Part shown: positions 2-12,922 of the stretch, piece by piece
How the letters are laid out: every line of letters starts with the position of its first letter
How positions within the stretch are numbered: position 1 is the first letter of the stretch
From: Promethearchaeota archaeon
GTDB taxonomy: Archaea > Asgardarchaeota > Hermodarchaeia > Hermodarchaeales > Hermodarchaeaceae
Assembly (NCBI GenBank): GCA_048939245.1
Contig: JBHLPR010000018.1
Coordinates: 1 to 39,127 of the forward strand
Reading direction: 5' to 3'
DNA length: 39,127 bases
The notes under the pieces: generated by a model
The model's input: only the letters and a program-made list of their open reading frames with translations
What the model was told of the DNA's origin: nothing
Database searches by the model: none
Position numbers and translations under genes: made by a program

Positions 2-70
2 GACCCCCGCTATCGAGAAGTTCTCTACAAAATCATCCTAGGTGCCGTCGCAGAAGCCACTACAGATTAA
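2..70 (+). CDS. 3' end of an unidentified gene entering from the left edge
   Basis: Frame from position 2 reads DPRYREVLYKIILGAVAEATTD to TAA at 68-70; protein-like but too short to identify. Confidence 0.45.
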   Translation, partial: DPRYREVLYKIILGAVAEATTD

Positions 71-165
71 CCATCCTCCTCTTAGAACATTTCATAATGC
101 TGCTGAAATAACAGCCTTTTTATCACTTCCACAACAAAATTACTCAGAGTTGGAGGGTTAAACTC

Positions 166-1770
166 CTGCAAAAAGAACTACTTCTCTTCTTTCTTTTATC
201 CTGGAGTCTCTATTTACCAATTCTCCAAGATTCCTATAATGTAGGAACTTGTTATCCACTGATAGAAGATGATGCTCATCTAGCGCCAGCTATTATTTGG
301 GAAAAGTCCTTCTCCCATCAATGGGGTTCTTGGGGGTGGATTGGCCATGAACTTCAAGATGGCAGCTTTGTTATTGCAGGAATTCATCCACCTGGGGGTT
401 GTTATGATTGGTGTGTGTATCCTGGTTGGATAATGCGAATCACCAATGACGGAAGCTTACGATGGTATCAATTGATAGAGAACTATTCTTCATTTTATTC
501 AACACGGTTACTCAGCATAGATTCATCTTCTTTTCTTCTAGCAGGTGTGGGGCAAATATACGGATTATTTCCCGAACTTGATCAATTTATTTCGCTTCAT
601 TGGATAGACAATGAAGGAAACTGGTTCAGAAACGTTACTTTCAACTGTTGGGATAATTGCTGGCTCGGAGATATTATTCCACTCCAAAATGGAAGCTTAA
701 TCGTTATACTATCTGGGTGGAAAGCAAATCGCGCTCTTTGGTTAGGTGCGGATGGTTCCTTGCTATCGAATCACACCTATGCTCCAATTCGCCTTAATTT
801 TAGATGTGCCCATGGCTGTCAGGATGGAGGATTTGTCGTGGTCGGTGAAAATCATACCTCTCAACCAGTCTCTCTCTCAATAATACGTGTAAACGGATCA
901 GGTTCACTGCTATGGAAATGTGATTATACAACTGAATTTAACTTACAAGCTCGTCATGTTTGCGAAGACGGTGAAAGCGGTTTTCTCGTAGTCGGAGAGA
1001 TGGGTAATGAAACTACAAGTCCTCCAACCTCTCTTTGGTTAAAACGAGTTGATGCTTTTGGAAACACTATTTGGACTCTTCCTCTCCAAACCTCTTCAAT
1101 TGACAGTGTATCCGGTATTACAAAGACGATAAGTGGGGATTATGTTATCTCTGGTAATCGAAACGGAATTGCATACTGCTGGCGAGTAAATAATCTGGGT
1201 GACATTGTATGGGAATCAGATTTTGGGGGTGACAAAAATGTGGTCTTTGCTGACATCATCACATGCCAGAATGGTGATTACGTAGCTATCGGGACTGATA
1301 ACACCCTTTCCTCTAATCCGATGTCCTTGGTGCGTCGCTTTGATGAACAAATGGCTCCGACATCCCCTACGCTTTTCAACGTTTACCTTCCGCATCCTTT
1401 CCCTCACTTTCTCCTCACCTGGTCTACTTCTTCTGATATTGACGGAACTGTTGTTGGTTACCGCCTTCAGATATCACCTTCGGCTACTTTTTCTAACAAT
1501 GTTACCAGCCTATACCTAACTTCGAATTCCACCTCTATTCTGCCTTCAGATCATCACTTGTTATATTATCGCGTCGCAGCTATAGATGATCGAGGAACAT
1601 TTAGTTACTGGAGCAATATCCTTCTCATCAACTTTGATGAGCTAATCCTGTTGTACAATGTAATACTCGCCACCACAATAGGCATTCTAGTCGTTGTCAT
1701 CATATTAACGAGTTTTATTTTTGTGCGGTACAAACAAAAGAACAAACATCAAACTAGGCGAAATCTATGA
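166..1770 (+). CDS. Cell-surface/secreted protein: signal peptide, beta-propeller-like repeats, FN3-like domain, C-terminal membrane anchor
   Basis: Repeats of the type DGGFVVVG / SGDYVISG / NGDYVAIG followed by RVDAFGNTIW. FN3-like segment LTWSTSSDIDGTVVGYRLQIS...YYRVAAIDDRGTFSYWS. Hydrophobic C-terminal helix with basic tail. The frame is open from 112; a CTG at 166 after GGAGG (152-156) adds a signal-like N-terminus. The ORF track start is 415. Confidence 0.7.
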   Translation: MQKELLLFFLLSWSLYLPILQDSYNVGTCYPLIEDDAHLAPAIIWEKSFSHQWGSWGWIGHELQDGSFVIAGIHPPGGCYDWCVYPGWIMRITNDGSLRWYQLIENYSSFYSTRLLSIDSSSFLLAGVGQIYGLFPELDQFISLHWIDNEGNWFRNVTFNCWDNCWLGDIIPLQNGSLIVILSGWKANRALWLGADGSLLSNHTYAPIRLNFRCAHGCQDGGFVVVGENHTSQPVSLSIIRVNGSGSLLWKCDYTTEFNLQARHVCEDGESGFLVVGEMGNETTSPPTSLWLKRVDAFGNTIWTLPLQTSSIDSVSGITKTISGDYVISGNRNGIAYCWRVNNLGDIVWESDFGGDKNVVFADIITCQNGDYVAIGTDNTLSSNPMSLVRRFDEQMAPTSPTLFNVYLPHPFPHFLLTWSTSSDIDGTVVGYRLQISPSATFSNNVTSLYLTSNSTSILPSDHHLLYYRVAAIDDRGTFSYWSNILLINFDELILLYNVILATTIGILVVVIILTSFIFVRYKQKNKHQTRRNL

Positions 1771-1945
1771 GGTACTCAATTTTCTTGCGAAAAAAATGCA
1801 GAAAGCCACAACAATCGACTATTCAACAGGGGAACCGGCAAACAAGTTAAATACCCTTAACCAGATAGTCAAAACCAAGTGCCGACAGGTCACTTTAAAA
1901 CCCAAAGCTACAGAAATCATTTGAATAAATGGGAGGCTAATTATA

Positions 1946-3493
1946 TTGCCAAAAGGTTTAAGTGTATGCCGTTGGGACGACAAGGTAGGTCTACGTGTTG
2001 TGGGCGTTTATCCGCGTAACCTTGAAGTCTCTGAGGACGATATGCTCCGTGTCTTCACAGCCCATGCTATGGGTAAACCTGAAGCCGGTTTTCTCACCAT
2101 GACCCTCGAAGGGACGAACCTGGCAGTGAGTAGTTTCTATACGGGAATTCTTCGTGGGCGTGATCAGTTTTGTATCATGTTGTTTATGGATTTGGAGGAG
2201 GAGCCTCGGGCGTATGAAGAGGGGTTGACGCTTGCATCGAGTGAGATTGTGGAAAATATTGGTGAACCAGAATTTGTGGAGTATCTGGGTGAGGTCTTTG
2301 AGAAGCTGAAGCGGATGGTGGAGCTGTCTGTGGAGCAGCGGCTTGCCAAAGTGTTCGTGGATCAGGAAACTCGGTTACTCATGCATAAATTGGCTCGGGG
2401 AGGGATTCCAGCCGAGGAGTTGCGGGAGTGGCTTGAGTTGCAAACGGGAAAGCATTACCCAGATTTGGGACTTGTGACCTTGCCACTTTTACGTAGTGGA
2501 CTTGTGGAAGAAGACTGGATTAATGCAGTGTCCGATAACTGCGTATTTTTGGTCAATGATCTCTTGGGTGCGCGGTTTCCACCAGAACAATCGCTGAAAT
2601 TAGCAAAGGGTGGCGGGTTGAACAAGGAACAGTTCCGTGAATATGAAAACCGTGTAAAAAGTTTCTTTGAAGACTATCAGTGGACCGAAGAAGACACGAC
2701 TATGATTGGTCAATTGCTTCTCGATCCTGATATTTACGATGTGACAAAGACGCTACGTCGGAAGATTGCGCATAAATCCGAATTAGTTGGAGTGGTGGAA
2801 AAGGAAGCATCATTGGATAATGTACTGCGGCGTTTGGAGCAGTCGCAAGTCATTACGAAGATGGGTGCAGATTCTGTTGAGGTTTCTGCCCAAGATGATC
2901 CGTTGATTGTGCTTTCCTCGGATGTGCATTTTGAATCCTTCTTTCCGGAGTTCTTGGTGCTGCGGATCCAAGAGCGTTTAGAGGCTAAGGATATCCACCC
3001 AGATATTGCCAAGCGGCACTTAGAGCTTCTTAGTGAGACCTATATGCGTATGCGGGAGAAGATGAAGGAACGTAAGAAGCGGAAGAAGGAAGAGGGTGAA
3101 GAAGAGCTTCCTGAAGTTGAAGCGGAAATGCCAGCTCCTCCTGAAGTCACGGAAGCTGAACCTCCAGAAACCGCTGAACTGCCTGCTGTTGACGAAAAAG
3201 AGGCTAAACGAATCCAGAAGGAAGAGGAGAAGAAGCGGAAGGAAGAAGAAAAACGCCTTAAAGAGGAAGAAAAACAGAAGAAGAAGGGAGAGGAGAAAAA
3301 GCATAAGGAAGAGGAGAAGAAGCGGAAGGAAGAGGAGAAGCAGAAGAAGAAGGAAGAGGAACAAAAACGCAAAGAAGAAGAGAAGCGACTAAAAGAAGAG
3401 GAGAAGAAGCGGAAGGAAGAGGAGAAGCAGAAGAAGAAGGAAGAAGAAAAGAAAGAAACTGCGAAGAAAAAGAAAGAAAAGGACTCCTCTTAG
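1946..3493 (+). CDS. Asgard-type uDENN/longin-like protein with probable winged-helix domains and a charged E/K helical tail
   Basis: The N-terminus GLSVCRWDDKVGLRVVGVYP resembles the uDENN/longin beta1-beta2 start. Two wHTH-like segments end in LLRSGLVEE and LEQSQVITK. C-terminal KEEEKKR repeats. GGAGG at 1932-1936 lies 9 nt before the TTG start. Confidence 0.65.
   Translation: MPKGLSVCRWDDKVGLRVVGVYPRNLEVSEDDMLRVFTAHAMGKPEAGFLTMTLEGTNLAVSSFYTGILRGRDQFCIMLFMDLEEEPRAYEEGLTLASSEIVENIGEPEFVEYLGEVFEKLKRMVELSVEQRLAKVFVDQETRLLMHKLARGGIPAEELREWLELQTGKHYPDLGLVTLPLLRSGLVEEDWINAVSDNCVFLVNDLLGARFPPEQSLKLAKGGGLNKEQFREYENRVKSFFEDYQWTEEDTTMIGQLLLDPDIYDVTKTLRRKIAHKSELVGVVEKEASLDNVLRRLEQSQVITKMGADSVEVSAQDDPLIVLSSDVHFESFFPEFLVLRIQERLEAKDIHPDIAKRHLELLSETYMRMREKMKERKKRKKEEGEEELPEVEAEMPAPPEVTEAEPPETAELPAVDEKEAKRIQKEEEKKRKEEEKRLKEEEKQKKKGEEKKHKEEEKKRKEEEKQKKKEEEQKRKEEEKRLKEEEKKRKEEEKQKKKEEEKKETAKKKKEKDSS
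3217..3480 (+). repeat. Intragenic purine-rich tandem repeat encoding (KEEEKKR)n
   Basis: Exact 50-nt duplication at 3308-3357 and 3395-3444 (period 87 nt), plus shorter copies of gaagaggagaagaagcggaag. Confidence 0.9.
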
Positions 3494-3513: not shown

Positions 3514-4182
3514 TCACTTGTTCAAGGTTTGCTGACGGTTTGCTGCACTAATATCCCGAGCCGTTTCCCAGGTTTTTCGAACAATATCCGGAAACGTTTG
3601 ATGTGTTTGAATCCAAGTGCTTAGAAATCGTCGCGTTTTTGGATCGCTAGGGTATCCACTTCCAAAGTCTCCATAGCGCTGATGATATTCGCTGATTCGT
3701 CGATCACGATGTACTTTGGCAACGATTGATGCGGCGCCAACAATGGGGTAGGTTGAATCTGCTTTATGCTCACTGATAACCGTTTTTGGTGTGTTTAACT
3801 GTGCTGAGATTGTGCGACCATACCGTGCAGCATTTACATCAGAGGCATCGACATAAGCAATATCCCACCGTAAACGATTCAAAACCTGTGCCATCCATTT
3901 TGCCTCTAAAACATTGAGGCTGTGCTTTTTCTGCCGTTCCTCGTCAATTGTTTTTGCACTTACTTCTAACACTTCAATTTTGGAAGCCAGTTGGCGAATT
4001 CGGTGTGCAAGCAATTCACGACGTCGAGGAGTTAGTTGTTTTGAGTCTCGGACTCCCCATTCACTAAGTGCATCTTCTTGAGAAGCAGTTATCACAACCC
4101 CTACGATTACTAGCGGGCCTATAACGGGTCCTCGTCCAGCCTCGTCAACACCAGCAATTTGTTGCGTCAATCCTAACACCAA
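3514..4182 (-). CDS. rnhB: Ribonuclease HII
   Basis: GVDEAGRGPVIGPLV, DSKQL, KAD..YP.V.AASIVAKV and DFGSGYPSDPKT motifs. Confidence 0.97.
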   Translation of the reverse strand: MVLGLTQQIAGVDEAGRGPVIGPLVIVGVVITASQEDALSEWGVRDSKQLTPRRRELLAHRIRQLASKIEVLEVSAKTIDEERQKKHSLNVLEAKWMAQVLNRLRWDIAYVDASDVNAARYGRTISAQLNTPKTVISEHKADSTYPIVGAASIVAKVHRDRRISEYHQRYGDFGSGYPSDPKTRRFLSTWIQTHQTFPDIVRKTWETARDISAANRQQTLNK

Positions 4183-4265
4183 CTTCGATAATTCAACTGT
4201 TCCGAAACCATTAACTGGTGCTCAACCTTATTAGTTCCTACCTAGTTTGCTTGCTTGTGGCATAC

Positions 4266-4550
4266 ATGACAGAATGTAAATACCCAGAAATATGGCTTAG
4301 CATCCTCGATGGTAAGTTTCGTGTCTCTTCGCGACTTCCTCCACCAGCACAAGTTCCAGAGGATTTTAGTTGTCTTACTCCTGAGGGTGAAACCATGCCG
4401 ATTTGTGTTTCGCCACTCTATGAATCGATTCACGATGCTAAGGGTCGTGCAGCAACGCTCCAAGCGGATCTCCAAGAACAGGGGTGCAAGGTGCTCTTTT
4501 TCTTCGAACTACGCCCGGCAATTGTCGGTGATCCTCACGCAAACCGCTAG
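4266..4550 (+). CDS. Small hypothetical protein (94 aa)
   Basis: ATG at 4266 and globular-looking sequence, filling the gap divergent from rnhB; overlaps the DedA ORF end by 113 nt. Confidence 0.45.
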   Translation: MTECKYPEIWLSILDGKFRVSSRLPPPAQVPEDFSCLTPEGETMPICVSPLYESIHDAKGRAATLQADLQEQGCKVLFFFELRPAIVGDPHANR

Positions 4551-5304
4551 GTTCCTCATTAGCTTCTGTTAATTCATCGTTTCCTGCATTCTGTTCTTTT
4601 CGAGCACGCCGACGAATAATAATGCGATATAAAATAAAGACGACCAGAAAAATGATGAGGAGGATTAAAATTAGAGTTTCTAACAAATCAATCATTTCAG
4701 CTAAATTTACGAATCCTACACCAATTATCCAGCCTAAGAGGCCTAGGACCAGATAACGAGGTAAAGTACCAAGGAATGTGAATACTGCAAATTTTTTTAC
4801 ATCTGCTCGAATCGCACCATACAGAAGCGAGACGACAGAAAGTGGGATAATGGGGATGGCACGTGCGGTGAACAGGTAAATTTCATCGCGTGAAGATTTC
4901 TCCATGTTCTTGCGCATATATTCAATTTCTTCTAGTGATGTTCCAAGGTATTTACCATATCGCTCGATAATCGGATACCCGCCAAAAAATGCAATTCCGT
5001 ACCCAAAAAAGGAACCAACTGTGGCGGCAAGAGCTCCAACAAACATTACACTGAATAGGATAACTAAGATTGCCTGCAGTGGGTCCAATCCTAAGGTTAG
5101 AATGAATCCTGCCGCCATTGGAACAAGTGGGGAGGGAAGTGGGGCAATGAATGTTTCAATCATGACACCAAGAAACACGCCGAGTGGTCCTAAGGCTACA
5201 ACCCATGAAATTAGGAGCGCAATAATGCCATCTATCCATGCATCAAAGGCTTGTAACCAGGCGATAATCGTATCAATGATCAATGGAGGTTCCCTCAGAA
5301 GCAA
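4438..5304 (-). CDS. DedA/VTT-domain membrane protein
   Basis: ETFIAPLPSPLVPMAAG, G...GYGIAFFGGYPIIERYGKYLG, ARAIPIIP and F..FTFLGTLPR motifs. The true start may be the TTG at 5283. Confidence 0.9.
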   Translation of the reverse strand: MLLREPPLIIDTIIAWLQAFDAWIDGIIALLISWVVALGPLGVFLGVMIETFIAPLPSPLVPMAAGFILTLGLDPLQAILVILFSVMFVGALAATVGSFFGYGIAFFGGYPIIERYGKYLGTSLEEIEYMRKNMEKSSRDEIYLFTARAIPIIPLSVVSLLYGAIRADVKKFAVFTFLGTLPRYLVLGLLGWIIGVGFVNLAEMIDLLETLILILLIIFLVVFILYRIIIRRRARKEQNAGNDELTEANEEPSGLREDHRQLPGVVRRKRAPCTPVLGDPLGALLHDP

Positions 5305-5330
5305 ATGACTGAAACTCGCTTTGACTTATT

Positions 5331-5678
5331 CTATTCTCCTGGATATTTCTTCATGATTTCTTCCAGTGATGGAAACTCGGGGTCATCGACAATGGCAATG
5401 GTTCCATAACGACCGGCAGATAATTCCATCTCACCACGAAACGTCTTGACGAACCCATTTTCAACCTCGACGACTACTCCTTCATCCACTTTGTCAATGT
5501 CGTCATTCCAAAGGGATAATTTGATAGTACCCGTATCATCACCTGCCTGGGCGGTGGTTACACGGGCTTTACCATAACGTGTTTGTACGTCCCGAACGGG
5601 CTCTAAGGAAAGGATGCGTAACCGGATATTAACACTCCGGGATGCAGAGGATAATTCGTGAACTTTCATTTCAAACAA
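5331..5678 (-). CDS. Single OB-fold ssDNA-binding protein (archaeal SSB/RPA-like)
   Basis: GDDTGTIKLSLWND, VVEVENGFVKTFRGEMELSAGRYG. Confidence 0.9.
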   Translation of the reverse strand: MFEMKVHELSSASRSVNIRLRILSLEPVRDVQTRYGKARVTTAQAGDDTGTIKLSLWNDDIDKVDEGVVVEVENGFVKTFRGEMELSAGRYGTIAIVDDPEFPSLEEIMKKYPGE

Positions 5679-5772
5679 CCTACATAATAAAAGAGATTTA
5701 CCAAGGATGTATTAAAGCACACTTTTAAAACTTGTAGGAACGCTGGATTTTCAGAAACAGAAGGGTTCAGTT

Positions 5773-7500
5773 ATGCCGGTAACAGCTGCGACCCCATTTC
5801 AAACCCTCAGTGAGGTTTCTGAGGCGATTATGGGGACCACTAAGCGCTTAGAAAAAATGGATATCGGCGGGATTTTCCTTTCAAAACTTTCTTCTGAGGA
5901 GATAGAAGTCGCTGCCTTACTTCTTATCGGTCAGCCTTTTCCTCGAACTAGTCAACGCTCCCTTGCACTTGACTGGAAGGCACTTCATCAGATACTTCAA
6001 GAATTGTTACAACCATCTCCGAAATTATTACGTGATTTATTTGCACAATCTGGTGACATCGGCGAAGTCGTATATCAGCTGTACCTGCAATCCGGAACTA
6101 TTAAACAATCAACTTTATTCACAACAGCTCTAACCATCCGCGGTGTGCATACAACATTTTCCGAAATCGCTGATGCTCAAGGTCCTGGATCGCGAAAACG
6201 AAAAACCAGTCTTCTCCGGGCATTATTTACGCGTGCAACGCCGCTGGAGGCCAAATATCTTGCTAAGCTTCTTGTCGGGGATCAACGCATCGGGTTCAGC
6301 GAAGGCATGCTTGAAAGCACGATTGCCCGAACACTCGAATTACCTCTTGATCTCGTTCGCCGCGCTAATATGCTCACCGGAAATATCGGGAAAGTAGCAC
6401 GCATCGCTTTCAGTGAAGGGGTAAAGGGACTTAAGAAGGTGAAATTACAGGTATTCATTCCCCTACTACCAATGCTGGCAGCACAGGCGGAAGACGTTGA
6501 GGATGCATTGACTATTCATGATGGGCGTTCAGCATTTGAAATGAAGCTGGATGGTGCCCGTGTCCAAATCCATCTGCAGCATCAGAATGGACAAACATTA
6601 ATCCGAATCTATAGTCGACGTCTTACAGATGTGACAACTAGTTTACCTGATGTTGTTACAATGATTGATGACCAAATTGAAGCCCAAAGCGGCATTCTTG
6701 AAGGGGAGGTCCTAGCAGAGGGGCCCGATGGACGTCCCTATCCTTTTCAACATCTTATGCGACGTTTCCGTCGGGTTCGTAATATTGAGGAAATGGTTCG
6801 TAAAATTCCAGTTAAATTGTATCTCTTTGACTTGCTTATGCATGATGGTGAAATACTAATTGATGAATCCTACGAAAAACGAAGACAGCGTCTAAATATG
6901 GTTCGGGGTCAAATTCCCCTCGTTGAGCAATTAGTGAGTTCAAATTCCGGAGAAGTCACTGCATTTTTTGAGAAGGCGATTGAATCGGGGCATGAAGGGC
7001 TTGTCGCCAAAAGACTAGATAGCCCCTACCAACCCGGTATACGCGGAAAAGCATGGTTGAAAATTAAACAGAGCATGGAAACCCTGGACCTGGTCATCAT
7101 TGCCGCTGAATGGGGAACAGGTCGACGACATAAATGGCTCAGTGACTATCATCTCGCTGCACAGGATCCAGATACAGGCGAATATCACATGCTTGGAAAA
7201 ACTTTCAAGGGGCTAACGGATGCAGAATTCGAGGATATTACCCAACGCCTACTTGAACATAAAATCGAACAGCATCGTGGAATTGTCACCGTCCATCCGC
7301 GGCTTGTCGTCGAAGTCGAATATGATGAGATTCAGCGGAGTCCAACATATAAGTCTGGGATGGCACTGCGGTTTGCCCGAATCAAACGTTTAAGATATGA
7401 TAAGACTCCACAAGACGCTGATACAATTCAACGTGTTCAGGAACTTTATGACACCCAATTTGATCGCAAGGCTTCAACCAACCAGGTGGGTTGCAGCTAG
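5773..7500 (+). CDS. lig: ATP-dependent DNA ligase
   Basis: Motif I EMKLDGARVQIH, EGEV, LFDLL, EGLVAK, WLKIK and ALRFARIKRLRYDK. Confidence 0.97.
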   Translation: MPVTAATPFQTLSEVSEAIMGTTKRLEKMDIGGIFLSKLSSEEIEVAALLLIGQPFPRTSQRSLALDWKALHQILQELLQPSPKLLRDLFAQSGDIGEVVYQLYLQSGTIKQSTLFTTALTIRGVHTTFSEIADAQGPGSRKRKTSLLRALFTRATPLEAKYLAKLLVGDQRIGFSEGMLESTIARTLELPLDLVRRANMLTGNIGKVARIAFSEGVKGLKKVKLQVFIPLLPMLAAQAEDVEDALTIHDGRSAFEMKLDGARVQIHLQHQNGQTLIRIYSRRLTDVTTSLPDVVTMIDDQIEAQSGILEGEVLAEGPDGRPYPFQHLMRRFRRVRNIEEMVRKIPVKLYLFDLLMHDGEILIDESYEKRRQRLNMVRGQIPLVEQLVSSNSGEVTAFFEKAIESGHEGLVAKRLDSPYQPGIRGKAWLKIKQSMETLDLVIIAAEWGTGRRHKWLSDYHLAAQDPDTGEYHMLGKTFKGLTDAEFEDITQRLLEHKIEQHRGIVTVHPRLVVEVEYDEIQRSPTYKSGMALRFARIKRLRYDKTPQDADTIQRVQELYDTQFDRKASTNQVGCS

Positions 7501-7528: not shown

Positions 7529-10500
7529 CTAGCTGCGAAGCCGAATTTCATTTGACGCTGAGATCCATCGGGGTCCGAGGGTTTGATTGAATAAGGCAAT
7601 GTAACTAGCTTGGTCACTGACTACGGCAACAATTTCGCCTTGATTTCCGTAGGTGGGCGCGATAAGAACCTCTTCTCCATCACGCGAGCCACCATAAAAC
7701 TCCATTTTCGGATTATTCCAAATCCGAATATTTCCTTGTTTTAAGAGCTTTTGAGCACTGGCTAATTGTTTTTCCCCATCAAGTGTGGTAATGATATGAA
7801 TCCGATTTTGAGGTTGTACTTCACTCAATTCAGCAACAGGAACTTCGTCAAATGTAGGATAGACTAAAGTTATGGTCTCACCGATTCTTCGAAACATATC
7901 TAAAAGATGGTTCTGGATTCCTTCACAAGTCACAATCCGCCATGTTCGCTCTGCCTCTGCGGGTTCCATTTTGGTAAGAGTATTCCACAAGCCGATAAGA
8001 ATTTCTTCGGTTTGACCTGCTTGGGTTCTGAGACGGTTCAGGGTAGGTTCTGTCTGAGCGGAGAACAGTTGCAAAGAATTAACAGCAGTTGTTTCAGCAG
8101 TTTTCGCTCTGGCTGTGACTTCTTTTGTCAAAGTCTGATACTCTGATTTGAATGTTTGGCGTTCTTTGCTTAAGGTTCGGCTAATCCGTCGACCCGTTTG
8201 TTGTGTTTGAGTGGTCAATCCATCTTTAGCATTATCTAGAATTTGGGTAATGCTAGCAACTAGTTTGTCATTTTTTTGTTTGAGATTGGTGACTGCGGTT
8301 CCCTTGAAGCTTTGGAGCCTTTCTTCCGTTCGCCGTAAACCATCCTGAATGGCGCGATTTAATCGGGTCTCGGTTAAACTCAGTGTCTTGGTTTGATCTT
8401 GTAGTACATTTTCAACTTGCTCTTCTATTGCTGTTTGAAAGTTTTTCTTGTTCTCTTCTATCCCCGCGATGATGTTTGATAAGAGCTTGGAGATATCACC
8501 TTGTGAACTCTTCAACGTTGAGATAAGTGACTCTGAGAGCTGATCTGAGGATGCTGAAATTCGTTCTCCAAGAGTTGATAGATTTTCTCCTAATTGGCCA
8601 ATGATGGTCTGTGTTTTAATTTTGAGTGTTTCGAGTAGTGTTTGATAAGAAGTATCATTCTTTGTAAGCGTTGTATTTAGGGTAGCATTTATGGCGGTAT
8701 CAATCTCGCTCATCTGCTGTTCAAGCTCTTCTTTACCTTCATTAGTGACGCGTTCTAACTCATCAAATAGTTGGTTTTGTATTTCTCTAGATTGTTCGGC
8801 AAGGGATTGGAAAGTTGAAGAAGTCTCTTTGCTTAATGCTATTTGTTGAGTATTGATTGTGTTGAGCAGATTTACCTTATTCAATTCGATTTGTTCAACT
8901 AGTTCAGTGTCAATCTTTTCGCTGGTTTCTCCAATTCTTTCTATTAGCTTTGAAGTCACTGTTTGTAATTGGACTAGCTCTTGTTGTAGGGTGGAGATAT
9001 AATCCTCTACTTCTCCAGAAAGAGAGCTAGCAAATTTTTCTAAGAGCTGATTCATTGCCGTTCTTTGTTCGTCCATACGTATGGCACAAGTTTGCCCGAC
9101 TTCTTCAATTATGGACTGAGATTTCGGAATCTGCTTTTCAGAAAAGGCTACTAATTTCGTTTGGATATTGTTTATTTCTGCAATTATTATGGTCCCCTGC
9201 TTTTGTATCAAATCTTGGACATTTTTCTTCAAGTTATTGACTCGATCTTCTTGTGTTTGCAATTCGGTTTCTATATTTTCCACAAAAGTATTCGCGGATT
9301 CACGAATAGTTACAAGATTTTTGGTCGTAGCCTTTTCGATTTCCTCTGCCATTGTCTCTATTTTCTGTGTCGTTGAAGTTTTTTGAGTACTTATATCAGT
9401 CCACAGCGAATCGAACAGAGTTTGGGTTTCTTCAAGTTGTGCAAAACAGTCCTCTTGCATTTCGGTAATACTTTGAGAGACTTGCTCGTAGATTCCACTT
9501 TTTTCACGGTCAAATTCCTGAACAGCTGTAGTTAATAGGTTACTTGTATCGTCTTCAAAATTCGTCAGGTTTGTTTTTACATTCACTATGGCTTGGTCGA
9601 CCGCAGTATCCGTGGCGGTATTTAAGGCTGTTAAATTACCCACTACTGCTGAGGAATAGTCATCAATGGTTTTGGTGACTGGTAACCAATATTTTTCAAC
9701 CAGAGTGCGCGTATTCGCATCAAATTTTTTCACTGTGTCGCTGAGTTTCTTGGCCAGTTCTTCTGTGGAGTCTTTAATTGGGGGGCTTTGTGTAGTTGAA
9801 AACTCCCGGAGTTTTGGTGGAAGCTGAGTTCGAAGTTGTTTCTCTAATATAGATTGAAACGCCGCCTCTGCCTGAACCTGTGGTGATATTTGATCATCTG
9901 CGACTCTCCTTTGATATTTTTCTAACATCTCTTCGCCTGAATTTTTCAGCAGACTAGTAAGTTCGGGTTTCAAAGAGTTCGAATAATTCGTTTGCAGGGG
10001 CGTCTTCAATAAGGACTCAAATTCAGTGGTTATTTCTTTTATGTTGCGTTTGTGCTGACGGTCGAGCGCTGATTGATATTCATTAAAGATTTTCAAAAGA
10101 TTCATGGGTTGTTTGTTTAAGTACTGTTCAGATAGTTTTGAGAGAAAGGCGTTGGGTAAAGTTTCAAGATTTTGATCGCTGGATTGAAAAATCTTCGATA
10201 TTTGCTTCTCTCGGTTAGTTTGTTTTGTGAGCCTCATCTTGAAACTTTGTAAAACAGTTTCCAGCTCTTTTGTGGTTTTTTCGCGAACAGGTTTGGTTTG
10301 TTTGGATAAAGCAGTTTTTAAAAGTGCACGGAGTTTGTCAAACGTGGTTTGCAGTATATCATTGATTTGTTTCTCCCGCTTTGCTTGCCGCATCACTTTT
10401 GTTTTGCAGCTACGCAAAATTGGTTTCATTTGAGTAATAAATGATTTAGCGATTAGCTCATTGTGTTTCGTGATTTGTTGGTTGTAGACGTTAACAAATT

Positions 10501-12922
10501 CATCTCGAGCGAGATTAAGTGCTGTATCAGATTGTGTTTTCTGTAGATCCTGGCGAGCTCCAAGGAATTCAATAAAACTTGTTGAGATATCACCTAATTG
10601 TTTCTCCAAGGTGTTTATAATCACTGAATTAACATCATTGAGTTTAGAAGAAGTTAGGCTCTTTTGTATAATGGATGCAGCGGTGCTAGCTACTCTTGAT
10701 TTAAGCGCGGCTTTTTTCTTTTCGAAGGTTGTTTGATATCCATTGAGGGCTGCAAGCCCATATACGGGAATATCTTCTTGCAGAATTTTATTCAAATTCG
10801 TAATAATTGTTTGATCCCGTTTTGTCAGTTGAGATTTCCAGCTCTTAATTATCCTCTCTACAGCTTTATCTCGGCTGGTTTGGGCTTCAGTAATTGCAGG
10901 TTGATAATTGCTGATTGCGGTTTCGATTTTGAGTATTTGCTCAGCGCGGAGTTTGTCTGCGGTACTTTCTATTCCCTCAGAATATTCCTTTATTATTCTT
11001 TCAAGTTTTGTTAGTTCTTTGTTTAGTCCTGAAGCTGTTTCTCCGACTATTCTTTTCAGTGCTGCCTCGAAGGCACGGACTTTCTTTTCAATGCCTTTTT
11101 GCTCTTTGGTAGCTTTAGCTAGGTTTTCTTTGCCAGACTGCCTTATGGTGCTTTGTGCTTGAGTTAATCGGGTTTCACTATACTCTCTTAGTTGGTTTTC
11201 TGTTGTTTCAAGCGCTTTGATTGCAGTGGAGGCTTCTGATTTTAGGAGTTTTTGCATTTGTTTATTTAGAGAACGATGTTGTTCTTCTTGTGAATTCATT
11301 TTTGTTTGAAAGTCTGAGATAAAGGATTCCGCAGTTTTTTGTACGGTTTTTAATCGGCGTTTGAGTCGTCTTCCGACTTGATCAGCGATGGACTTGAAAT
11401 TGGTAGCAAGATTTGTTTGTTGCGTGTTGCTTTCTTCGATTAAGGTCTGAAGAAGAGTCTGCACTTCTAGGAGCTGTGCTAAATACTTGTCACGCATTTC
11501 AATGCCTATGCCTTGCTTTGCCTCTTCGAGCAGTTTTTCATGTTCTGTTTTTACTTGTTCTATCAGGGTGGATAACGAAGTCTGAATTTTGGAAAATTGT
11601 GAAAAACTCAGGGATGAGGGAGGCCATTCTGTTATAGTAGTTTCGGCTTCTTTGTGTAGACTTTGTATCTCTGAACTATTTTGCGCGTGAGCTTCTTTTA
11701 ATTTTTCAAAAAGGCTTTCGACGATTTGTACCGAGGTATCACGGCTGGATTTGATTGTGGAATCCATGGTTGTTGCGGCATTATCCGTGTGCGAAACAAG
11801 TCGGCGATTTTCTTTTTGTATCGTTTTATCTAACTGTGTGAGAATGTCTTCCAATACCTGGGTTCGTTGTGTCCAGGTGTCACGGAGTTGAGTCGAAAAA
11901 CTTTGAGTATGTTTTGTTAAATTTTGTCTTGTTTCTTTTTGTAATGTGTCTAACGCTTTTTGTGTCTCTTGATTGAAGGAGGTGATATCATCTGTGAGGG
12001 TTATAGCGGTTTCTTCAGTAATTTCAGATATTCCCTCTTTTTGTGATGTACTTTCAGAAGTTATGGATTTTATTCCTGAATCTATATTACTTTGAATACG
12101 AGAATTAGCATTCTGTAGTTGAGTTTGGACCTGTTGGATGTTGGTGACCACTTCTGCTGAAATTTGATTTGCTGTAGCGCTAGCCCATTGTTCTGTTTCT
12201 TCTTGGTATCCGTTGATTGCTTTAATTGTATCATCTAACACCTGCTTTTGAGCCTCATCTAGCTGAGTGGCTCCTTCATCAATGAGATTACTGAGAGCTT
12301 CTTGAATTGATGTAATCTGGTCTGAAATTTCGTTGACACTGGATGATGCAACTTCACTCAAGGCTTTCTGTAAGTTTTCCGCTACGTTACTCAATACAAT
12401 ATTAGTTGCCATGGCTGCCTCGTTTAAAGCGATTCCCTGTCTTTCGTTTAGGTTTTCCAAGGCATTCCGAGTCTGCCGAATCATTAACTGCAATTCATCA
12501 TGTATTTCGCCTAATGCTTTAGTTTGGATTTGCTGCAGTTCCTTCCAAGATTTCTGAGTGTCTTTTGTGAAAGCTTGGACTTCCTTGGCCAATTCCTTGT
12601 AAGGTGCAAATGCTCGATAACGAGAAACAACACCGGGTAAGGCTTTAATGAGTTGTTGTTTCTCAAGGTATTCGATAGTGCTTCTAGCCTTGACCATGGG
12701 AATTCCCGAATAATTACTAATCTCATCCGCAGTAAGCTGACCCATTACCAATAATACGGTATATACTCGGCTCTGAGATTCACTTAATTTGAACCGGCTT
12801 TGTAATGCGGTTAACAACTCAGCTGGAATCTCCATCGGGATGGCGCATTGAGCGGTATTCTCTTGCCCTGCTGAAGCAGGGGGAAACTCGGGATTACCTT
12901 CTTTTGGAGTCATTTTTGTCAC
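7529..12922 (-). CDS. Giant TrmB-like protein: N-terminal wHTH, about 1500-aa coiled-coil/helical region, C-terminal PLD-fold TrmB effector-like domain
   Basis: LSESQSRVYTVLLVMGQLTADEISNYSGIPMVKARSTIEYLEKQQLI is a TrmB-type HTH. The middle is Q/E/K/T/S/L/I-rich and nearly free of Pro/Gly. The C-terminus WRIVTCEGIQNHLLDMFRR...SRDGEEVLIAP...YIALFNQ resembles the TrmB middle domain. Confidence 0.8.
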   Translation of the reverse strand: MTKMTPKEGNPEFPPASAGQENTAQCAIPMEIPAELLTALQSRFKLSESQSRVYTVLLVMGQLTADEISNYSGIPMVKARSTIEYLEKQQLIKALPGVVSRYRAFAPYKELAKEVQAFTKDTQKSWKELQQIQTKALGEIHDELQLMIRQTRNALENLNERQGIALNEAAMATNIVLSNVAENLQKALSEVASSSVNEISDQITSIQEALSNLIDEGATQLDEAQKQVLDDTIKAINGYQEETEQWASATANQISAEVVTNIQQVQTQLQNANSRIQSNIDSGIKSITSESTSQKEGISEITEETAITLTDDITSFNQETQKALDTLQKETRQNLTKHTQSFSTQLRDTWTQRTQVLEDILTQLDKTIQKENRRLVSHTDNAATTMDSTIKSSRDTSVQIVESLFEKLKEAHAQNSSEIQSLHKEAETTITEWPPSSLSFSQFSKIQTSLSTLIEQVKTEHEKLLEEAKQGIGIEMRDKYLAQLLEVQTLLQTLIEESNTQQTNLATNFKSIADQVGRRLKRRLKTVQKTAESFISDFQTKMNSQEEQHRSLNKQMQKLLKSEASTAIKALETTENQLREYSETRLTQAQSTIRQSGKENLAKATKEQKGIEKKVRAFEAALKRIVGETASGLNKELTKLERIIKEYSEGIESTADKLRAEQILKIETAISNYQPAITEAQTSRDKAVERIIKSWKSQLTKRDQTIITNLNKILQEDIPVYGLAALNGYQTTFEKKKAALKSRVASTAASIIQKSLTSSKLNDVNSVIINTLEKQLGDISTSFIEFLGARQDLQKTQSDTALNLARDEFVNVYNQQITKHNELIAKSFITQMKPILRSCKTKVMRQAKREKQINDILQTTFDKLRALLKTALSKQTKPVREKTTKELETVLQSFKMRLTKQTNREKQISKIFQSSDQNLETLPNAFLSKLSEQYLNKQPMNLLKIFNEYQSALDRQHKRNIKEITTEFESLLKTPLQTNYSNSLKPELTSLLKNSGEEMLEKYQRRVADDQISPQVQAEAAFQSILEKQLRTQLPPKLREFSTTQSPPIKDSTEELAKKLSDTVKKFDANTRTLVEKYWLPVTKTIDDYSSAVVGNLTALNTATDTAVDQAIVNVKTNLTNFEDDTSNLLTTAVQEFDREKSGIYEQVSQSITEMQEDCFAQLEETQTLFDSLWTDISTQKTSTTQKIETMAEEIEKATTKNLVTIRESANTFVENIETELQTQEDRVNNLKKNVQDLIQKQGTIIIAEINNIQTKLVAFSEKQIPKSQSIIEEVGQTCAIRMDEQRTAMNQLLEKFASSLSGEVEDYISTLQQELVQLQTVTSKLIERIGETSEKIDTELVEQIELNKVNLLNTINTQQIALSKETSSTFQSLAEQSREIQNQLFDELERVTNEGKEELEQQMSEIDTAINATLNTTLTKNDTSYQTLLETLKIKTQTIIGQLGENLSTLGERISASSDQLSESLISTLKSSQGDISKLLSNIIAGIEENKKNFQTAIEEQVENVLQDQTKTLSLTETRLNRAIQDGLRRTEERLQSFKGTAVTNLKQKNDKLVASITQILDNAKDGLTTQTQQTGRRISRTLSKERQTFKSEYQTLTKEVTARAKTAETTAVNSLQLFSAQTEPTLNRLRTQAGQTEEILIGLWNTLTKMEPAEAERTWRIVTCEGIQNHLLDMFRRIGETITLVYPTFDEVPVAELSEVQPQNRIHIITTLDGEKQLASAQKLLKQGNIRIWNNPKMEFYGGSRDGEEVLIAPTYGNQGEIVAVVSDQASYIALFNQTLGPRWISASNEIRLRS

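Follow-up and report, generated by a model that had tools for sequence, protein, structure and literature searches.

What does an archaeal longin-domain protein do when its gene lies beside that of a small GTPase? We address this question for a gene near the start of a 39,127-nucleotide (nt) stretch of DNA from a Promethearchaeota archaeon (GenBank assembly GCA_048939245.1, contig JBHLPR010000018.1, positions 1 to 39,127), referred to below as the window. The gene (1946..3493, forward strand) starts with TTG, stops at 3491-3493 and encodes 515 amino acids, comprising a longin domain, two winged helices and a low-complexity tail. Its fold, architecture and conservation patterns are established here, as are its pairing and co-occurrence with one family of N-terminally extended small GTPases. 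From these we infer that the window protein very likely binds or regulates the neighbouring GTPase, and that it is probably a dedicated longin-type regulatory partner of it. The original prediction, made from the same DNA, had proposed an archaeal longin GTPase-activating protein (GAP) with a catalytic arginine; the longin fold, the place of arginine R70 in its loop and its conservation within one clade were borne out, whereas a second candidate, R72, and a family-wide arginine were not.

The longin/winged-helix gene is real. Its start at 1946 had been placed correctly, but its end had been set at 3060, a position that sits within the final conserved helix of the 515-residue protein. The sequence strings quoted at that time are present as residues 7-19 (VCRWDDKVGLRVV) and 61-82 (VSSFYTGILRGRDQFCIMLFMD), and the two arginines had been located correctly (R70, nt 2153-2155; R72, nt 2159-2161). 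A word-indexed search (4827 candidates) returned 38 close homologues at E ≤ 1e-3, and every annotated one is a 'hypothetical protein' from an Asgard-labelled metagenome-assembled genome. An exhaustive search of 1.84 billion proteins gave 261 representative clusters with E ≤ 1e-3; tightening the threshold to 1e-10 left 137 of them, and to 1e-30 left 48. Strong selection on the gene is apparent from 13 related loci, in which core identity amounts to 91-95% while the DNA ligase reaches 74-79%; identities for the RNase HII and the SSB-like (single-stranded-DNA-binding) protein are 59-79% and 79-93%, respectively. In the remoter loci L017, L018 and L021, core identity is ~78% as compared to ~63-65% for the ligase.

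Sequence searches gave the protein no name. No family was found for it in Pfam (at E ≤ 1) or NCBIfam, and scanning 27 longin domains one by one yielded no consistent Pfam match at E ≤ 10. Searches of the PDB with the single protein, the family profile and a longin-only profile retrieved no longin protein, while the winged helices matched weakly. The Pfam NPR2 model (PF06218) had no match at E ≤ 1 anywhere in the genome, and ESM Atlas matches of the protein were confined to unnamed Asgard clusters.

Structure prediction assigns the fold. An AlphaFold2 model of residues 1-375, based on a 69-sequence alignment, has a mean predicted local distance difference test (pLDDT) score of 94.6 and a predicted template modelling (pTM) score of 0.89. 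Residues 1-126 (1946..2323, forward strand) form a longin domain in the order β-β-α-β-β-β-α-α, with predicted strands at 2-11, 15-22, 48-54, 59-65 and 75-82 and helices at 30-42, 87-103 and 110-124. Among solved structures, VIA-align placed NPRL2 chains at the head (9o5d_D, Z 13.2; 9o5a_H, 13.0; 7t3b_B, 12.3; root-mean-square deviation (rmsd) 2.5-2.6 Å over 123/126 residues), together with a Lokiarchaeota longin domain (8yqg_A, Z 12.8), yeast Npr2, Lst4, FNIP2 and VAMP7 (Z 11.2-11.7) and, lower down, DENND1 (Z 9.9) and C9orf72-SMCR8 (Z 9.6). The top matches (Z 13.2-11.2) span 108-125 residues, and the best 50 comprise 47 longin-domain proteins, two of roadblock type (Gse1p, 3lgo; Ego3, 4ftx) and one match on the second winged helix. 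Since its lead over other longins amounts to only ~0-2 Z units, NPRL2 is the best match without being clearly separated from the rest. With the whole model as query, Foldseek likewise returned GATOR1 NPRL3 and NPRL2 chains on top (E 1.8e-4 to 4.6e-4). The five-stranded sheet order and these matches confirm the longin half of the 'uDENN/longin' label once given to the N-terminus; the DENN half is dropped, there being no cDENN or dDENN domain after the longin domain and no DENN match in Pfam.

The two segments that had looked like winged helices from sequence proved to be such by model, structure and profile matches. A separate model of residues 127-375 (pLDDT 95.5) contains two four-helix winged helices, two joining helices and two closing ones, all encoded on the forward strand. 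Winged helix 1 (residues 127-212; 2324..2581), with four helices and a β-hairpin wing, resembles MarR/RosR/PadR-type domains (Z 7.2-7.7, rmsd 1.9-2.4 Å, 62-75 residues), and the family profile matches the Mnd1 winged helix here at E 0.0029. The modelled linker helices (residues 213-244; 2582..2677) lead to winged helix 2 (residues 245-333; 2678..2944), which resembles the ArsR/SmtB type (CzrA, PagR, SmtB, CadC and TubR; Z 7.6-8.3, rmsd 1.9-3.0 Å, 75-80 residues) and has a family-profile match to PH1932 at E 1e-4. The closing helices (residues 334-375; 2945..3070) end the conserved core in the model. According to the relevant passage of Levine et al. 2013 (PMC3747258), NPRL2 and NPRL3 begin with a longin domain, to which at least two α4-β2 winged helix-turn-helix repeats are appended, so that the window protein, modelled as a longin domain and then two four-helix winged helices, has the same architecture. 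As modelled, the likeness to NPRL2/NPRL3 is a match of architecture only.

Which GTPase would such a protein serve? The window itself opens inside the 3′ end of a candidate gene: nt 2..70 (forward strand) hold the last 22 codons and the stop of the gene for P0189, a 289-residue, N-terminally extended small GTPase (tblastn, C86:2-67), and frame 2 of the window reads DPRYREVLYKIILGAVAEATTD up to the stop. The remainder of this gene is found on another contig of the assembly, C39, whose 77-nt end is identical to the beginning of the window and which therefore adjoins it. Contigs of runs X1, possibly the source sample, and X2 match window nt 1-2202 and 1-2326 without a difference and extend further upstream. 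The GTPase and longin genes are here separated by a segment of 1,695 nt (96..1790) carrying a surface-protein open reading frame (415-1770); as a contig of run X3 joins nt 95 directly to 1791, this segment is a strain-variable insertion, without which the spacing would be ~180 nt, as in relatives. The inserted surface protein shows weak β-propeller and fn3 matches and a C-terminal membrane helix and has distant paralogues on at least nine other contigs.

The neighbourhood is a conserved one. Seventeen loci are of Hermodarchaeota type, two of which begin at the longin gene; in 15/15 of those with upstream DNA, a protein of 287-289 residues is encoded upstream in the same orientation, 129-783 nt away. 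In P0189, a ~125-residue N-terminal extension precedes a small-GTPase domain that begins at about residue 130 and matches several Pfam models (Roc, 1e-20; Arf, 6.8e-20; Ras, 2.4e-17; Gtr1_RagA, 5e-6). Neighbour GTPases are orthologous, sharing M1, Y61, G137/G140/G142/K143, T162, G187-Q188, N240-x-D243 and an AIDP motif, and thereby keep a Ras-like P-loop and the switch-II glutamine; those of L023 and L024 are exceptions, in which the extension looks different.

Beyond Hermodarchaeota, we inspected 22 diverse loci, of which 20 were chosen from the family match table before their context was seen, L023 and L024 being the additional two. A GTPase gene lies within 1 kb in 11/22, often overlapping the longin gene or 30-130 nt downstream of it, and in L033 and L034 an N-terminally extended GTPase gene is found 1.4-2.8 kb away on the same strand. 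The density of GTPase matches is 0.226/kb in the 1-kb flanks, as against 0.026/kb elsewhere in the same diverse loci and 0.012/kb across the genome that contains the window (31 places, 2.52 Mb). In GTDB family f18, four codons separate the longin and GTPase genes in 4/5 genomes. There, in L046-L049, the longin gene stops with TAG and, without change of frame, the GTPase gene starts four codons on, so that a frame of 644-646 codons is broken by a single TAG, whereas the two genes of L050 are in different frames. No fusion of the longin family to a GTPase was seen among 32 longer representatives (15 and 17).

The two families also travel together at the level of whole genomes. We screened 151 Asgard genomes for the longin family at E ≤ 1e-10 and for the extended GTPase at E ≤ 1e-45, a threshold set to exclude plain GTPases, using a GTPase model built partly from seven of the diverse loci plus Hermodarchaeota sequences. 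The longin-winged-helix family occurs in 114/151 genomes and the extended-GTPase family in 112/151: both in 109, the longin family alone in five, the GTPase alone in three; 34 genomes have neither. GTDB families f4 (0/14), f13 (0/4) and f21 (0/7) lack both. Read from coordinates, 27 of the 31 best GTPase matches have a listed longin-family match no more than 1 kb away; of the four unpaired, two concern family places that are unlisted, one a pair on two short contigs and one the window's own genome. The GTPase extension may itself be a longin domain. Comparison of the longin and GTPase family profiles by hhalign was not significant (probability 0.8, E 0.074), so this assignment is putative; in the ESM Atlas, the GTPase N-terminus gives a weak lead (score 0.76) to Asgard clusters named 'first longin domain of FUZ/MON1/HPS1'.

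Further members of the longin class accompany the pair. In 14/15 Hermodarchaeota-type loci a paralogous longin protein is encoded upstream of the GTPase gene, so that paralogue, GTPase and the gene studied here form a conserved three-gene cluster. The copy of the window's own genome (L025:1492-2514, contig C39) starts with PRGLVVSQWDTKEG; the paralogue has an arginine-rich β4-β5 loop, a cysteine-rich stretch and a weak match to the TFIIB repeat (E 0.0012, below cut-off). Elsewhere in this genome (contig C5), another longin paralogue with an MDPKIGP motif and Cys-x2-Cys pairs (L005:1498-2397) is convergent with, and overlaps, the gene of a 183-residue Rab-like GTPase (L005:2394-2945).

In some genomes, the module is part of a much larger protein. 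Nine representatives have a long N-terminal part (P0056, P0062, P0073, P0076, P0078, P0081, P0086, P0098 and P0147), to which L042:7056-15044 can be added; the longest of these proteins has 2,663 residues. All nine have a single hydrophobic segment 87-112 residues ahead of the module, which makes the module the cytoplasmic end of a giant single-pass protein. After this segment comes a conserved juxtamembrane stretch (SESLLYRDKE...KWDKIGLS), and 5/9 long forms match Laminin_G_3, DUF2341 or CarboxypepD_reg in Pfam, some below curated cut-offs. In L042, the surface-protein fusion (an open frame of 2,663 residues) is followed within 497 nt by the extended GTPase gene. The extracellular parts of these fused giants and the surface protein inserted in the window share no similarity at E ≤ 0.1. 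Rare fusions (P0112, P0135, P0106, P0044 and P0171) combine SIR2_2 plus TPR, TIR_2, TPR or HhH with the module or parts of it.

Where on the longin domain might a GTPase dock? Among the 69 aligned sequences, the residues kept best are W10 (59), D11 (53), G15 (65), P23 (68), H40 (60), S63 (62), G67 (54) and E85 (57). Three of these make up a family-wide W-D-x3-G motif, W10-D11-D12-K13-V14-G15 in the window protein (1973..1990, forward strand), in the β1-β2 turn. Section 2.4 of PMC12290439 describes a glycine-proline (GP) motif that ends the β1-β2 loop in C9orf72, SMCR8, FLCN and NPRL2, and passages of the same paper state that it neighbours the arginine finger and that, in C9orf72, the essential W33-D34 precedes G38-P39. 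The W33G/D34K double mutant of C9orf72 is reported to have almost abolished ARF1 GAP activity (in the corresponding passage of PMC8213707). W10-D11-x3-G15 has the spacing of C9orf72 W33-D34...G38, a match of motif and position only; the residue after G15 is L16 here and proline in 14/69. From the usual longin strand order, the β1-β2 and β4-β5 turns should share one end of the sheet.

The β4-β5 loop is where the arginines sit. In the AlphaFold2 secondary structure, R70 and R72 lie between two strands, as had been foreseen, namely in the loop formed by residues 66-74 (TGILRGRDQ; 2141..2167, forward strand) between strands 59-65 and 75-82. Eukaryotic arginine fingers—NPRL2 R78, FLCN R164 and SMCR8 R147—sit in the topologically equivalent loop. 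Published statements have it that the three align structurally, and PMC8213707 describes an ARF1 complex in which R147 of SMCR8 is directed at BeF3. Most members of the family, however, lack R70: the typical loop is a turn of four or five residues without arginine (e.g. SYYTG-PETNYY), and the R70 column of the family alignment holds a gap in 57/69 sequences and arginine in 4/69. R72 is not conserved beyond close relatives, its column being mostly glutamate or aspartate (31/69; E 21, D 10, K 7, R 6).

R70 nevertheless has a following of its own. A model-based alignment of 26 genomic members reveals a second loop type, YTG-h-x-R-[G/E]-x-x-Q, in Hermodarchaeota, Atabeyarchaeia and members from f6 and f26. 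In a quick IQ-TREE maximum-likelihood tree of 104 rows, the arginine-loop sequences group in one 19-row clade (Shimodaira-Hasegawa-like approximate likelihood ratio test (SH-aLRT), 89), of which 15 carry the arginine; P0026 has histidine, P0041 two lysines, and P0059 and P0060 neither. The loop-type label requires 5 changes on this tree versus 12.4 in shuffles. The clade spans GTDB families f1, f6, f12 and f26, and R70 is kept within this subfamily at ~30% identity. Short longin-only paralogues encoded directly upstream of full-length, Atabeyarchaeia-type family members (L029:8399-8902 and L030:8373-8822) bear the loop AVRGRPQ, near the ILRGRDQ of the window protein.

Together, this suggests a mode of action, wherein one end of the longin sheet would contact the GTPase, with the W10-D11-x3-G15 turn and the β4-β5 loop presumably side by side at that end, like the GP motif and the finger of eukaryotic longins. 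The two acidic winged helices would most likely bind protein rather than DNA. Given that R70 is conserved in the loop of its subfamily, activation of the GTPase by an arginine finger, in the manner of NPRL2, FLCN and SMCR8, would be the single most likely catalytic mode; the remaining odds would be shared by an exchange factor, an effector and a subunit that holds the GTPase without catalysis.

Is the protein then an archaeal arginine-finger GAP of FLCN/SMCR8/NPRL2 type, a precursor-like form of GATOR1 and FLCN regulators in which R70 or R72 is catalytic? In favour of this, the longin fold is nearest to NPRL2, R70 occupies the right loop and recurs in 15/19 members of a clade spread over four GTDB families, and the partner retains the switch-II glutamine and a Ras-like P-loop. 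Moreover, Asgard longins with GP motifs and arginine fingers have already been proposed as relatives of GAP longins (in section 2.6 of PMC12290439). The R72 version of this reading has poor conservation against it. As for R70, short-loop members without the arginine stand beside orthologous GTPases, and hence the common function of the family cannot depend on it. We therefore keep the R70 finger as a live but tentative hypothesis for its own subfamily, not as the common mechanism of the family; granted that the protein does bind or regulate the GTPase, it becomes a serious candidate that still falls somewhat short of probable.

Several observations weigh against a GTPase-directed, NPRL2-like role of this kind. 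R72 varies (K, M, E, G), and two other large clades lack R70 even though L031, L032, L038, L040 and L045 adjoin orthologous GTPases. The proline of the GP motif is replaced by L16 in the window protein and occurs in only 14/69 sequences. No GTPase gene lies within 1 kb in 11/22 diverse loci, and related genomes are non-independent samples in both the pairing and the co-occurrence counts. No sequence profile ties the protein to NPR2, another Pfam family or a longin chain in the PDB; NPRL2 leads the Lokiarchaeota, Lst4, FNIP2 and VAMP7 longins by only ~0-2 Z units; and the C-terminal domains of NPRL2/3 are not among the best 50 Foldseek or VIA-align matches of the C-terminal model.

Alternatively, the protein may be a non-catalytic longin subunit comparable to C9orf72, NPRL3 or FNIP—a holder or scaffold, an exchange factor or an effector platform—with the catalytic residue contributed by another protein, such as the longin paralogue encoded two genes upstream in Hermodarchaeota. 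This would account for the W-D-x3-G motif, a holding motif of C9orf72 type, being the sole polar motif common to the family, for the absence of a loop arginine from most members and for the paralogue with an arginine-rich β4-β5 loop of its own in 14/15 loci. It would also agree with the statement, in a passage of PMC10933270, that longin and roadblock dimers are mainly exchange factors. Conservation of R70 in its own clade, however, is unexpected of a purely passive loop, and we regard this reading, too, as possible yet doubtful.

Both C-terminal domains match DNA-binding regulators of the ArsR/SmtB and MarR types. The protein could be imagined as a transcription regulator whose two winged helices bind DNA, the longin domain serving as sensor or as receiver of the GTPase, an idea to which the weak TFIIB-repeat match of the Hermodarchaeota paralogue (E 0.0012, below cut-off) would lend itself. 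Yet the winged helices are acidic, with net charges of -4 and -8 (family medians -1 and -3), which argues against DNA binding, and 9/9 extended forms have the module on the cytoplasmic side, at the end of a single-pass surface protein. NPRL2 and NPRL3, moreover, use their winged-helix repeats for protein contacts. A DNA-binding role is hence very unlikely. More improbable still is a longin adaptor divorced from GTPase control, akin to longins of SNAREs and coat subunits: VAMP7, Ykt6, Sec22b and σ/ζ coat longins do match (Z 9-11), and on this reading the GTPase linkage would be a mere neighbourhood effect, but many GTDB families show the pairing and the co-occurrence with one GTPase family, and the 515-residue open reading frame contains neither a SNARE motif nor a transmembrane anchor.

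Returning to the preferred reading, a dedicated regulatory partner of the adjacent GTPase, one may speculate about its most elaborate version. The window protein might be a single-chain version of the longin GAP heterodimers of eukaryotes, the C9orf72-type W-D turn and the SMCR8/NPRL2-type arginine loop of the subfamily lying next to each other in one longin domain. It would act, alone as a homodimer or together with the paralogue, on a dedicated, putatively longin-fused GTPase of the same cassette; where the module is fused to surface giants and the GTPase gene follows directly downstream, the result would be a receptor-coupled small-GTPase switch. We consider this version as a whole rather unlikely.

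A few further features of the locus deserve mention. By eye, candidate promoter and ribosome-binding elements are found upstream of the gene (1894..1936, forward strand): TTTAAAA (1894-1900) and, 9 nt ahead of the TTG, GGGAGG (1931-1936). At the other end, the conserved core gives way to a low-complexity tail rich in glutamate and lysine (residues 376-515; 3071..3490, forward strand; 53 K+R, 51 D+E) with a 21-nt (7-residue) repeat, present in 11 copies at 3215-3454 that are themselves organised into units of 66 and 87 nt. Inside this repeat, public assemblies are interrupted or turn back on themselves. Tail length varies, orthologues measuring 415-553 residues overall, and most family members lack the tail. 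Downstream (3514-7500), genes follow for RNase HII, a DedA/VTT membrane protein, an SSB-like OB-fold protein and an ATP-dependent DNA ligase, the RNase HII gene being convergent with the longin gene; this order is kept in 14/19 related loci (13/14 of those reaching far enough). On the reverse strand, 7529-12922 encodes a protein of 1,797 residues with an N-terminal TrmB-type winged helix and then a very long helical stretch, for which apolipoprotein-like matches stay below cut-off.

Why does the pairing matter? Asgard genomes encode dozens of small GTPases and of longin or roadblock proteins. According to the relevant passages of Tran et al. 2024 (PMC10933270), GTPase and regulator genes were, in the one genome examined, generally not arranged in operons, a layout from which it is difficult to tell which regulator belongs to which GTPase. 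The present family is an exception: in many Asgard families a single, defined longin protein is encoded next to a single, defined GTPase, and the pair can be expressed and assayed directly. If R70 is indeed a finger, arginine-finger longin GAPs would predate eukaryotes and the short-loop clades would serve as natural controls. If it is not, the family would show a non-catalytic longin partner from before the eukaryotic heterodimers arose.

How does this family relate to what has been described? The general idea of NPRL2-like longins in Asgard archaea is already known: Rodrigues-Oliveira et al., in the passage concerned, name an 'NPRL2-like longin domain' among enriched eukaryotic signature proteins, and section-level statements in PMC12290439 relate Asgard longins to GAP longins. 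With the 'NPRL2-like longin' asCOGs of the Liu et al. 2020 preprint and the GP-motif and finger longins of PMC12290439, the window family shares phylum, fold class and evolutionary idea, as far as the pertinent parts of these sources go, and it may or may not be the same family as either. It is the wider of the two sides (114/151 genomes), and the same parts of both papers report no GTPase pairing, archaeal W-D motif or surface-protein fusions. Our literature search found no paper on this gene pair, nor on an Asgard family of longin plus tandem winged helices beyond the statements cited above. The defined partner, the subfamily arginine pattern, the W-D motif and the receptor fusions thus appear to be additions.

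A bacterial parallel in layout is MglB-MglA, likewise a two-gene module in which a protein of the roadblock/longin superfamily regulates the adjacent Ras-like GTPase. MglB, however, is a roadblock homodimer without winged helices that works without an arginine finger of its own, and no MglB chain is among the best 50 VIA-align matches. With C9orf72-SMCR8, an ARF GAP, and FLCN-FNIP the window protein has longin domains in common, which in the eukaryotic complexes cup a small GTPase, as well as the W-D-x3-G spacing of C9orf72 and, by topology, the finger-loop arginine of SMCR8 and FLCN. These proteins differ in carrying a DENN domain after the longin domain, where the window protein has two winged helices, and in their weaker structural match (7o2w_A, Z 9.6; FNIP2 chains, 11.2). 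In the C9orf72-SMCR8-WDR41 (CSW) complex, furthermore, WD motif and arginine reside on different subunits, whereas the window protein unites them on one chain.

The best comparison is with NPRL2/NPRL3 of GATOR1 and their yeast counterparts Npr2/Npr3 of SEACIT. Here, too, there are differences: no sequence-profile relation was found, the C-terminal likeness is not specifically detectable, the arginine of the window protein is conserved only in its subfamily, and the Asgard GTPase carries its additional domain N-terminally and is the product of an adjacent gene. We know of no DEPDC5-like third subunit for the Asgard protein. What the two sides share is an N-terminal longin domain followed by repeated four-helix winged helices, an arginine in the loop before β5 and a linked small GTPase with a longin- or roadblock-type domain, putatively so for the P0189 extension.

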